DNA from: Curvularia clavata
Lineage: Eukaryota
Direction of reading: 5' to 3'
NCBI GenBank assembly: GCA_023920165.1
Contig: CP089277.1
Location: 3,658,001-3,722,000 of the forward strand
DNA: 64,000 nucleotides
In this document: positions 35,125 to 41,527 of the stretch, piece by piece
How positions within the stretch are numbered: the stretch's first letter is position 1
Layout of the letters: every line of letters starts with the position of its first letter
Notes under the pieces: generated by a model
Told to the model about the DNA's origin: nothing
Database searches by the model: none
Seen by the model: only the letters and a program-made list of their open reading frames with translations
Made by a program: the position numbers and the translations under genes

Positions 35125-36489
35125 CTAAACCTTTCCAACAACAGAGGAGTTGTTAATCTCCGAGAAAGCCTTGATTGCGCGTTGCGGAAGTGACTCAATC
35201 CAGCGTCGCCACTCGTCCTTGCATGCGTTGCACAACTTGACGCCTCCGAAATGGTGGAGTTCGTTGGAGCCAATTGAGTTACGGGACTGACATTTTCCAC
35301 AAGGACGGGTCTGGTCCACCTTCAACATCTCAGCCATGCCTTCAAACATGACTTTGTCTGAGGCCTCCAGCGCCCGATGGTAACGTGCGGTAAGTGAGTT
35401 CGCCGCGGTGAACGCATCAATCCGGTTCCAGAGCTTTTTGTTCTGTCGGACTTGATTCACAACTTCGACTGTTTCTTCTTTGCCAATGGTGCACCCATCT
35501 TCGATGTAACGGTAGCGACGCATCGTAATAAATAGAGGTCCTCCGAATAACCTGACAAAGTTGGTAACAACACTAAGCTCCGGTCTGTTAGACCAAGCAC
35601 AGTCCAAGGCCCAAAGCACCTCGCGGCAGCGTCGGACTGCTGGAACACGGAGTTCTGGGTGCGTGTATTGGAAAGTGTTGTTTGTCTCTCCCTCGGAGCG
35701 ATGCTTGAAGAAAGCGACGGCGTCGTACATGGTGTCACCAATCTCGCACAAGATCTCAAATTGTTGTTCAGTGAACCAAACGTCGTCCAGGTCGTTGCAC
35801 GCTAGCGCAGCAGCAATGGTAAATCGTGCCAATGCGTCTGCGTCTCGTAGGCGGAACCACTGACGCGGCGTCTGTGCAAGAGCATTGACATATCGTCGAA
35901 ACAGTTCACCCTCACGTCGGTCGCTGGTTTTGTCGGCGGTGATGAGCAAGAAGCTACGGTATTCTCGACACATCTCAGCGCTAGCGCGCAATCAAAATGT
36001 TAGTGAATGCGTTATATTGCATGGTCCAAATTGCGGAATTCCGTTTCACTTACTGGCCGCGGGTGCCTGCAAAAATACCATCAAGTACTTCTTGAAGGTT
36101 GTAGCCTAGCATTTCGTCGCCGGCCAGCACGTCCACCAAGCTACCGCGAAATTCGGCGATCGTGCCGATGACAATGATGCGCATGAATGCAACATAACGA
36201 TTCCAGTTCGTGTATGTTGGAATCACTGTCCTTGCATATTCGAATGCGGTCGTGAACACTTCATCCTTGATCCTCTGCGGGAGATCAACTCCTTGTAGAT
36301 CATTCGCAAGGACAGATGGATAATACCACTTGTCTACCGGCGAATTAAAATCTCTTGAATCAACTCTGATATTGAAGTTACTCATTTTGTACTCAATGAC
36401 GATTTGAACGCGTGTTCTACATACCCTGGACGCACTTCCGGCGTAACCGGTGCTGGACTCAGCTTCCGCTTTGTAGCAGTTGAAGACAT
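35125..36489 (-). CDS. aba3: ABA3-family non-canonical sesquiterpene cyclase (alpha-ionylideneethane synthase-like)
   Basis: Exons 36489-36425, 36365-36054 and 35980-35125 splice in frame. WYYP...ANDL, EYARTVIPTYTNWNRYVAFMRIIVIGTIAEFRG, GHAEMCREYRSFLLITADK, LFRRYVNALA...WFRLRDADALARFTIAAALACND, YDAVAFFKHRSEGETNNTF, FGGP...MRRYRYIEDG and C-terminal CxxC...FGGVKLCxxC match BcABA3-family motifs. Confidence 0.92.
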
Positions 36490-36796
36490 GATAGTTGTGG
36501 ACTTGGTTGAATGTGTAATAGAATGACTATGAGTTGACTTAGCTCATTCTCAGTTGTACCATTCGAGCTTATAACTATCATTGGTCTCTTAGTTAAGCAG
36601 TGCTAGGCTCGGTGAATTTTGTGGTGTATATGTCGATCAATTTCATTTCCCCCGGACTCCGAAAATGCGCCGCCGAAACATGCCTAGCGCCGAGGAGCGA
36701 AAATACAAATCACTGTCAACCCAGAGAGAAACACAAACATAATACAATCAAGTGCTCGAACCCTGTTTGCTTCACGAGTTGCTCATACTGTTGATC
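36490..36796. promoter_or_regulatory. Short bidirectional promoter shared by the aba3-like cyclase and P450-1
   Basis: 307 bp between divergent ATGs at 36489 and 36797; cluster of CGG/CCG triplets around 36650-36695. Confidence 0.6.
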
Positions 36797-38665: not shown

Positions 38666-39740
38666 TTGTGCCTGGCCAATAGAAGAGCCTGCACTATTGG
38701 AAATCCAACGCTCTTTTTGGAAAACAAGATCGAAAACCTGCGGAACAAACAGTGTTGAAATGACAGAGTCAGGACGTTGCTATCGGTGCTGGGGAGGTTA
38801 TTGATTTGAATGGCGGACTTGGTATCTGTGCATTGGTAAATGTAACTTCTTCACACGCAAGGGAGATAAATGTAACATCTTGCAACATCCTTCGCTAGTC
38901 CGAATACAAGAGCACAGCTTGGTTTACCAAGCAGTGAGTTCACAGAAGATGTCACGTGACACCACACCTATCTGGGGGTGTCCCTCCGTCGAGCTCGATA
39001 AATCTTCATCGCCACATAGAGAGAATACAGCAGCGCCCAATAAAGGTTCCCACTTGACCCCTAACAGTAGAGTGGCCAAAAACATGTGCTTGTGCTATCA
39101 TTCCTTGATTTTACTACGTGCAACACGCCGACAGTTTCCCGTCACATATGTGTTTCTGTCATACGCTCATTATCTCCCGTCTCCATGTAGCTAGAAACTA
39201 TCCTCAATGCATGAACGTAATGCTGCGAGAAACAACAGTATAGTAGAGAGTTCATCTCGAACAAATCAGCCGTGATTTTGCTCGGGGTTACTACGCTGCA
39301 GACCCCGCTCTGAACGTTACACAGACGTACTAGCTCTGGTAATCGCACCACTAATACGCAATGCTAATGTTGATCCCTTACTACAAATATCTATCATATT
39401 TACGCATCTGCAGAATCGATCGGGCATTATTGCTAGTGGGACGTCGGCAAACAACAGTCGGGTAACCGACTACCGAAAGTCTATTTGGCAGATACTCGCT
39501 GCACGCATGCAAAATCGTCCGAGTGGCAATGCGGAGTATTTTCTCTCAGACAGCTACATGATCGAGTTTTTCTGCCGAATATCATGATCTCAATGAGTCT
39601 TGGTTATATGTAATGGTCTCGTTGTTCGTAGGTCCCAAAATGTGGTGGTCTCTCTCCGCAAGTCAAGAAGACTCCGACGTTCATTCAGGACTTTGAGGTC
39701 CTTCAGGTATACTTTGAGCTTGTAATACCAAGAGACAATC

Positions 39741-41527
39741 ATGTTGTCCAATCCACCCGACATCCCCAATACCATAGCCCTCTTACTCGTCCCTGCGGGT
39801 GTAGTGCTTTGGTATATATTCACATCCTTTCACTCGTGGTACCGCCTCCGCCATATCCCTGCTCCCTCGGTACTCGCCACGTTTTCATACTTATGGCTCG
39901 GACGCAATACCTTCAGTGGAAAGCAGTATTGGGTGCATCGCGAGCTACATGCCAAATATGGACCTTTCGTGCGGATTGGACCAAAGGAAATCATGACAGA
40001 CGATGTGAGCGTAATCAAGCAGATATGCTCATCGCGCAGCCCCTACCAACGGAGCTCATGGTATCAGACCGGTCGCTTCAACCCTTACCACGACAACCTC
40101 CTTTCAATGCTTCGGACACCTGCACACCGAGAACTGAAGACAAAGGTCTTGACCACCATCAGCCCACGAGAAAACCCAGGCATGGAGCAAGCGATAAATG
40201 ATCAAATCGAAACGTTGATCCGGGTGATTCGTACGCGGTATGCATCAACTTCGTCCGAGAACAAGCAGTCGCTGTTCGACTTGGGTCCTATGTCATTATT
40301 CTTCACCATGGATGTCACAACATGTCTCGTCTTTGGGCGAGCGATTGGAGATATGGAAGATGAAACAGATCACTCGGGCTTCTTGCAGCATGTGGCAGAC
40401 CTCTGGCCTCAGATGTCGACCTCGGCTGATGTACCCTGGATCCGTAAGATCATCTTCTCTCCAGTTTTCTTAAAGCTCCTGGGACCGAAGGTTTCGGATA
40501 AGAAAGGCTTTGGAAACCTCATGGCGTAAGTTCTACCTTTGAAAGATTTGTAGGACGAAAACTAACTGATTTATTCCACCAGCTTTGCTGAGCGTCTTGT
40601 CAGAGAACGATTTAGGACTGGGGGCAAAGATGGAAAACAGGATATGTTGGTGAGTATTGGAAACACAAACACCCATTCAACTATAAGGGTGCGGTTCGCT
40701 AACCCGTTTTTGGGCAGACTGCCATGATGCGCACCGGCTTTGATCAGGCAGAGTGTGAAAATTATGCTTTGTTGCTATTGTTGTCGGGAACCGAAAGTAC
40801 CGCGTGTGCTATTCGTGCAGTGCTTAGTTACATCATTACCACGCCTTCAGTATACTCCAAGTTGAAAGAGGAGATCGCCACCGCTGTACGTGACGGTGCG
40901 GTCTCCTCGCCGATAACGTTTGCTCAAGCTAAGAAGCTTCCATACCTCCAGGTAATGATAAAGATATTTTCTGACTCATCAATGCATTTTATTAACAATC
41001 TTATCAATTTAGGCGGCGATATACGAAGGTATTCGGATGCGTACCCCTCTACTCGGCCTGTGGCCCAAGTGGTCTCCTAATGATGAAACACTCCTTGGGG
41101 TTCACATTCCCGCGGGCACATCTGTGTGCATGAACACATCTGCTTTGCTACGCTCTCCGAAACTTTTTGGCGGTGACGCAGATGTCTACAATCCAGAGCG
41201 ATTCATGAATCTAGATGATAAGACTCGCATGGAAATGGAGCATAATGTAGAGTTGGCTTTTGGAACAGGGCAATGGATGTGTATAGGAAAGAGCATCGCC
41301 TTGACGGAAATAAACAAGATTATCTTTGAGGTAAGCATTCTCATACGGCAACACGATCCATTTCCTCCCTTTTATGATCGTTTTGCTAACCTGGACGCTT
41401 TCATTGATAGTTGCTTCGAAACTTCGACATCCAGATGGCCAACCCCGTGATGCCGCACAAAATCAAGAGCTATGGCATATTCTTAGAGTCAGAGATGTAT
41501 CTCAAGTTCAAAGAGAGATTAATTTGA
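39741..41527 (+). CDS. Cytochrome P450-2 (pisatin-demethylase-like; candidate ABA2-type oxidase)
   Basis: SWYRLRHIPAP, KYGPFVRIGP, FFTMDV, LSGTESTA, KLPYLQA.IYEGIR, PERF and heme FGTGQWMCIG; last exon 41411-41527 ends in TGA. Confidence 0.93.

Follow-up and report, generated by a model that had tools for sequence, protein, structure and literature searches.

A 64,000-nucleotide stretch of the Curvularia clavata genome (GCA_023920165.1, contig CP089277.1, forward-strand positions 3,658,001 to 3,722,000; here called the window, to which all coordinates refer) consists of gene-dense eukaryotic DNA with a GC content of about 48%. It harbors three adjacent genes related to those of fungal abscisic acid (ABA) biosynthesis, i.e., a BcABA3-family cyclase gene and two cytochrome P450 (P450) genes. 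The original prediction described an intact three-exon cyclase gene, divergent from one P450 gene and followed by a second, at 35125..41527. Gene models, obtained by splice-site scanning and translation on window coordinates, confirmed this layout; none of the genes contains an internal stop, and the proposed bounds coincide exactly with two stop codons, at 35125 for the cyclase and at 41527 for the second P450. The ABA3-type non-canonical sesquiterpene cyclase (35125..36489, minus strand) is encoded by three exons (36489-36425, 36365-36054 and 35980-35125; 410 aa) and was modelled from matches to the BcABA3 structure and from spliced RNA contigs. On the plus strand are found P450a, an ABA2-type enzyme presumably responsible for ring oxidation (36797..38665; six exons, 528 aa), and P450b, an ABA1-type enzyme that would convert a side-chain methyl to an acid (39741..41527; five exons, 506 aa), both recognized from Pfam matches, homologue identities, trees and RNA contigs. 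The introns of all three genes are GT..AG throughout and 53-80 nt long. Pfam identified p450 in four of the six P450 pieces tested, and a Pfam scan of the cyclase exons assigned no family.

The start codons of the cyclase and P450a are separated by a divergent intergenic region of 307 bp (36490..36796, without strand), presumably a shared promoter; the same arrangement is seen in two metagenome loci (L002 and L003) described below. No motif is conserved among the seven intergenic regions compared, which have only chance-level 7-11-mers in common. The GC content at third codon positions of the cluster genes (0.49-0.56) lies inside the range of eight flanking genes or exons (0.48-0.66), so that base composition gives no hint of recent transfer. 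At 24-52 kb of the window, no transposon or repeat signature of a recent insertion was found, only short, chance-like repeats. Neither P450 (36797-41527) gave a 100% database match, and four other window proteins are present in NCBI/UniRef; public annotation may conceivably lack or mis-model both P450 genes. Four window proteins searched for host lineage had no relatives at 90%.

Public sequencing runs were used to follow transcription. From a list of 21 runs, 19 contain the stretch or part of it, and four (X12, X13, X16 and X17) were examined as contigs, which give presence only. Run X17 is a root metatranscriptome on record, while X12, X13 and X16 are only guessed to be RNA, an assignment favored by their intron-free contigs; the tables of X12 and X13 are identical and were counted as one data set. 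Among the joints listed, spliced joints at the predicted ends were observed for 10 of the 11 modelled introns (cyclase 2/2, P450a 4/5, P450b 4/4), none of those listed corresponding to the fifth P450a intron (37250-37307). Both cyclase introns are spliced in X12, X13 and X16, and intron 2 in X17. A two-exon cyclase starting at 36385 would also be an open frame, but the three-exon model stands because the upstream intron appears in RNA. In X17, pieces of all three genes were found at an identity of at least 95%, with spliced joints in each. All three genes are likewise covered in X12/X13; in X16 the cyclase and P450a are covered and P450b is not. Because contigs cannot show absence, missing cover, both of P450b in X16 and of a decayed regulator gene (see below) in the four runs, was set aside as evidence. 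Variants in X12/X13 and X17 are substitutions, with no indels. The contigs show transcription of all three genes, including in a root sample, as co-occurrence rather than as level or correlation, and transcripts of this fungus or a close relative occur in roots.

The cyclase matches the structure of BcABA3 from Botrytis cinerea (PDB 8zac) with E-values of 1.1e-114 for exon 3 and 1.5e-34 for exon 2; the same two exons match RuABA3 and, more weakly, bacterial SkABA3 (PDB 8zac/8zad/8zaf set). Approximately 221 of 370 aligned residues are identical to those of BcABA3 (60%, hand count). Residues were compared by eye from the alignments (BcABA3 numbering, i.e., chain number minus 23) at the 13 positions listed as mutated in BcABA3 in Li et al. 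2025 and its source data (PMC11695735). Twelve are kept: all seven residues of the Glu-based Mg site and diphosphate-binding set (E124, R202, Y242, K249, H250, R312 and Y313; for their roles, see PMC11695735) and five of the six that line the hydrocarbon pocket (Y96, I117, F167, L207 and F302). The sole change is I121T, at a site where the I121A variant of BcABA3 stays active, i.e., a dispensable one (PMC11695735). The four zinc cysteines (C384, C387, C407 and C410) are also kept, and the C-terminus is intact. By homology over the catalytic fold, the window cyclase is an ABA3-type terpene cyclase.

Positions 301 and 306-309 of the cyclase, just before the Arg-Tyr pair, are changed, 306-309 being unlike those of both BcABA3 and abl3 from Leptosphaeria maculans. 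Of the 121 rows in the ABA3 sheet of Hiruma et al. 2023, two contain the five-letter string found there, one from Parastagonospora nodorum and one from Pyrenophora semeniperda; L002 contains it too. The placement of the cyclase rests on the alignments to the BcABA3 structure, the rows of this sheet and comparisons between loci rather than on a tree; exon 3 shares 215 of 284 residues with L002, 80 of them via different codons. C204A was dropped as a branch marker, as L. maculans abl3 and others have it too. The changed string bears on the alternative that the cyclase makes another sesquiterpene skeleton, like SkABA3, which the P450s would then decorate: 306 and 309 could face the pocket, judging from helix spacing, T121 is common to the window cyclase and SkABA3, and ABA3 homologues can differ in product (PMC11695735). 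However, the five hydrophobic pocket residues needed for cyclization are all kept, the 60% identity to BcABA3 is set against a figure of 36% for SkABA3, which makes another product (PMC11695735), and the cyclase is paired with ABA1 and ABA2 orthologues, with a sister species making ABA-skeleton compounds. This alternative is considered very improbable.

P450b shows 77% identity to SNOG_02566-type proteins of P. nodorum and 76% to the latter half of a fused P. semeniperda model; its identities to BcABA1 and L. maculans abl1 are 56% and 54%, respectively. The corresponding values for P450a are 79% (P. nodorum SNOG_02565-type), 74% (P. semeniperda), 49% (Rutstroemia) and 44% (Colletotrichum incanum ABA2-like). 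Trees were quick IQ-TREE reconstructions rooted at the midpoint, with SH-aLRT as the sole support measure. The ABA1 tree comprises 48 rows, i.e., 43 of 45 matches (a mis-spliced duplicate and one Botrytis allele were dropped), four cluster members and the window protein, and the ABA2 tree 40 rows, i.e., 38 of 61 matches (23 distant ones were left out), one cluster member and the window protein. In both, the window P450 forms a group with the P. nodorum and P. semeniperda proteins (support 100), and the stems of the two groups are long (0.57 and 0.53). P450b falls within a starred 40-row clade with BcABA1 and abl1, the latter being found also in the 15-row starred clade of P450b. P450a falls within a starred 22-row clade of Fulvia abl2-named, Rutstroemia and Colletotrichum proteins, BcABA2 being outside the row set; its sister XP_001793169 is tabulated as ABA2 in the supplement of PMC10482981. 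The original prediction would have been at odds with P450s that fall outside these clades and are not co-expressed with the cyclase; P450b is found in the ABA1/abl1 clade, P450a in an ABA2-like clade, and the genes are transcribed in the same runs (co-occurrence only).

Diagnostic changes, counted with whole-clade controls, number 5 on the ABA1 branch against 0-9 in seven controls, and 16 on the ABA2 branch against 13, 0 and 0 in three controls. Excess P450 divergence as a sign of new chemistry was dropped because the partial-clade controls behind an initial contrast of 16 against 0 were invalid and whole-clade controls give no excess.

In a metagenome scan, 41 pattern matches led to four related loci. 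Two of these, L002 and L003, share an overlap (99.8%) and, when combined, have the gene order and orientation of the window; L001 holds both P450s, and L004, a distant P450 fragment (44-49%), was not used. Directly downstream of the cyclase, L002 contains a third, unrelated P450 (L002:552-2348, minus strand) and a fragment (L002:2-454) that weakly resembles a transferase, scoring under the Pfam cut-off; these possibly represent an additional tailoring step that is absent from the window. In L001 (4450-10080) the P. nodorum-like P450 pair is followed by a perilipin-family gene and by ribosomal-protein-like and WD40-like genes (by eye), and the regulator pair described below is absent on that side. 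The flanks are unlike one another in all loci compared.

The nearest named relatives are found in P. nodorum (XP_001793168/69/70, i.e., SNOG_02565, SNOG_02566 and a neighbor) and P. semeniperda (RMZ73257/RMZ73258), with P450 identities of 74-79%. According to their consecutive accessions these clusters have the order ABA3, ABA2, ABA1, and their cyclases carry the branch-specific string of the window cyclase; the genes are tabulated as ABA3/ABA2/ABA1 homologues in the supplement of Hiruma 2023 (PMC10482981). The cluster relatives of the window locus are Pleosporales. A functional study of the P. nodorum/P. semeniperda branch was not found, nor any paper for five SNOG tags, in a literature search that covered subscription journals thinly. 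The window cyclase is not among the two rows with the branch string, and the source genome therefore seems to be absent from the ABA3 table of Hiruma et al. Rows 80 and 94 of this sheet hold a second, short canonical-type fragment from P. nodorum (XP_001802546) and a second, odd entry from P. semeniperda (RMZ67979), which are possibly remains of another cluster. The public models RMZ73258.1 and PQE16151.1 fuse two adjacent cluster P450s and are probably annotation errors.

Compared with bcaba1-4 of B. cinerea, the locus has an ABA3 cyclase with identical catalytic and zinc residues (~60% identical overall) and P450s of the ABA1 (56%) and ABA2 types. It differs in the order ABA3/ABA2/ABA1 (aba3, aba1, aba2, aba4 in Botrytis; PMC4227169), in the presence of a regulator pair, in P450s that occupy a distinct long branch and in having no linked short-chain dehydrogenase/reductase (SDR). 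None of 211 flanking frames of at least 55 aa, located at 19.2-52.3 kb (0/133 and 0/78), matches the SDR family, and a six-frame SDR motif scan of the entire window gave no match, although short exons could escape both searches. The locus does not, then, fit a four-gene Botrytis-type cluster, as there is no linked ABA4 SDR among the flanking frames searched. A GMC oxidoreductase gene (~28750-30910, plus strand), thinly covered in X16, was tried as a stand-in for ABA4 and rejected; it matches none of the four related loci, which are short contigs. The L. maculans abl cluster reportedly includes an SDR and its own transcription factor (Darma 2019). Its abl1 belongs to the 15-row starred clade of P450b and its abl3 shares C204A, but in abl3 the Arg-Tyr pair is preceded by the canonical string. 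The ABA-BOT cluster of Colletotrichum tofieldiae is similar to the window locus in that ABA1-ABA3 are found without a linked ABA4 and are expressed in roots (PMC10482981), and its authors infer a need for host ABA biosynthesis (PMC10482981). There, however, the genes are joined to botrydial genes, and the C. incanum ABA2-like protein (44% to P450a) sits on another long branch. Clusters that comprise three ABA genes but no ABA4 have been reported from Colletotrichum and Diaporthe (PMC10482981), and over 100 microbes possess ABA3 homologues (Li et al. 2025, PMC11695735). Among ABA-producing strains that carry genes of this kind, Li et al. also reference the pyrenophoric acid paper (PMC11695735).

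Taken together, the locus is rather probably a working fungal ABA-type pathway of the three-gene, ABA4-less kind, and the fungus probably makes an ABA precursor or a close analogue. The candidate ABA-type pathway of the original prediction is in this respect supported by the P450 clades and by transcription in the same runs, with the ABA4 SDR missing at the locus. According to the conserved residues, the cyclase would bind farnesyl diphosphate via a Glu-held Mg cluster and the Arg-Tyr pair and convert it, via beta-farnesene and allofarnesene, to (2Z,4E)-alpha-ionylideneethane. By orthology, P450b would then oxidize the side-chain methyl, yielding alpha-ionylideneacetic acid, and P450a would hydroxylate the ring to give the 1',4'-diol (the BcABA1 and BcABA2 steps are those assigned by Takino et al., as cited in PMC6876084). 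Oxidation at C4' to ABA, not encoded at the locus, could be catalyzed by a dehydrogenase encoded elsewhere, occur without an enzyme or take place in planta; upon deletion of bcaba4 in Botrytis the 1',4'-diol accumulates and traces of ABA remain (PMC11210036). ABA-diol and some ABA would be released and act on host ABA signalling. This pathway is favored also by the conserved gene order and orientation in L002/L003 and by the position of the sister cluster in an ABA maker, the seed pathogen P. semeniperda, which yields both ABA and pyrenophoric acids (PMC9503419, PMC10142921). Several observations weigh against it: the cyclase carries the branch-specific string just before the Arg-Tyr pair, and pocket changes alter the outcome of ABA3 cyclases (PMC11695735); the stems leading to both P450s are long (0.57 and 0.53), and each P450 carries branch-specific strings in one segment; the ABA2 tree rows did not include BcABA2; and the linked Zn2Cys6 gene has decayed (see below). 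We take the P450 segment in question to be substrate recognition site 5.

Branch-specific changes in the I-helix and in this presumed recognition site of P450a are also consistent with another ring chemistry on the same backbone. The branch would then yield ABA analogues of the pyrenophoric acid type (4'-hydroxy, ring-saturated or otherwise oxidized), made by a diverged P450a and, where needed, unlinked reductases; these pro-hormones would be turned into ABA or a mimic by the plant SDR ABA2. The P. semeniperda cluster is the sister of the window cluster in both P450 trees, this species makes pyrenophoric acids (PMC9503419, PMC10142921), and the Hiruma tables give it one ABA1/ABA2 entry (the fused RMZ73258), the neighboring RMZ73257 as ABA3 and no ABA4 entry, although such tables do not survey whole genomes. 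P-Acid B requires plant ABA2, AAO3 and ABA3 and does not activate the receptor (bioRxiv 10.1101/622530). On the other hand, whole-clade controls reveal no excess of diagnostic changes on the branch, and P. semeniperda has a second entry in the ABA3 sheet (RMZ67979; 1141 aa, first 400 residues compared). For ring saturation, moreover, a reductase is required that the locus does not contain, so that the pyrenophoric acids may arise from ordinary ABA or ABA-diol as downstream or shunt products. No paper linking genes to pyrenophoric acids was found, with subscription journals thinly covered. We consider this other chemistry, the main alternative, unlikely, if still worth pursuing, next to the ABA-type pathway proposed above.

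The original prediction had overlooked the lack of a linked SDR, two linked regulator genes upstream of the cyclase and the kinship to a pyrenophoric-acid producer. The first regulator gene (33400..33960, plus strand) encodes in a single exon a 186-aa protein that lacks a DNA-binding domain and resembles AflR/CcsR-type regulators in their C-terminal part; the gene was recognized from homology to L003, from feature and structure look-alikes and from an X16 contig (33387-33885), which shows that it is transcribed. The protein is 46% identical, over 189 aa, to the product of a gene beside the ABA1-type P450 in L003. Its look-alikes are AflR/CcsR_C (features 0.96, template-modelling score 0.71), which is a lead only, as the family is found on just 15-45% of the cluster members. 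A protein search gave three matches, one of which was the protein itself, and no named protein; upstream of the gene, on its strand, no zinc cluster was found. It is probably a co-regulator of the cluster.

Divergent from this gene is a decayed Zn(2)Cys(6) transcription-factor gene (31938..32063, minus strand; Zn_clus E 3.6e-5), with an early in-frame stop and incomplete zinc ligands; an (AC)n microsatellite lies just 3' of it (31607-31642). It is 48% identical over 42 aa to a factor at L003:7605+, in which the zinc cluster is complete; the L003 contig ends inside this factor, which is apparently intact. The regulator pair is located downstream of the ABA1-type P450 in L003 (6074-8185) and upstream of the cyclase in the window, and it has moved as a unit. 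Because the pair is linked in both loci and the factor is complete in L003, the ancestral unit is, on this comparison, one of five genes. The 186-aa protein may act as a partner or modulator of the Zn2Cys6 factor, and the cluster enzymes in C. clavata would be driven by other factors.

The broken Zn2Cys6 gene also suggests a decaying cluster that has lost its regulator and makes little or nothing, with which the lack of P450b cover in X16 would agree (contigs cannot show absence). Such decay is scarcely probable: each of the three genes has an unbroken, spliced frame and is covered in X12/X13 and X17, and the variants in those runs contain no indels. A more specific proposal, which we regard as doubtful, is that the entire branch, which unites this fungus with P. 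nodorum, P. semeniperda and two or more metagenome fungi, has the hitherto unassigned pathway to pyrenophoric-acid-type pro-hormones, without ABA4, secreting a 4'-hydroxy analogue that is completed by the host SDR ABA2, and that it is controlled by a divergent pair, a Zn2Cys6 factor and a stand-alone AflR-like C-terminal protein.

Beyond the cluster, a gene for a fungal rhodopsin-domain membrane protein lies directly downstream (42195-43925, minus strand) and is spliced at five listed introns in X16, with one joint in X17; it was rejected as a cluster member, as it matches none of the four related loci (short contigs). Short pieces of DUF7708 (minus strand) and DUF7025/AAA-like (plus strand) genes at 23972-25411 are probably decayed, and about 5.5 kb at 44000-49600 are without a convincing Pfam match, with one sub-threshold Ets match. 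Ordinary flanking genes at 3037-4506, 11183-16237, 21466-22455, 52212-55412 and 60734-62648 encode proteins named by eye as cyclophilin-RRM, hybrid histidine kinase, alpha-glucosidase and AIF-like oxidoreductase, and a uracil-DNA-glycosylase-family protein.

The window locus adds to a known type of ABA1-ABA3 cluster, widespread and published. It is unsurprising in itself because ABA3 homologues are widespread, clusters without ABA4 have been described and the nearest named clusters are already tabulated. It draws attention, however, to a P. nodorum cluster that is uncharacterized and to an unusual regulator that lacks a DNA-binding domain. Furthermore, the branch to which it belongs provides a specific set of three candidate genes for the pyrenophoric acids (no assigned genes were found in the literature), and it allows a test of whether fungal clusters lacking ABA4 supply a precursor for the plant to complete. 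If the branch does make such pro-hormones, the last step of a fungal hormone pathway would be handed to the plant, and the wheat pathogen P. nodorum would gain an unreported ABA-type metabolite.

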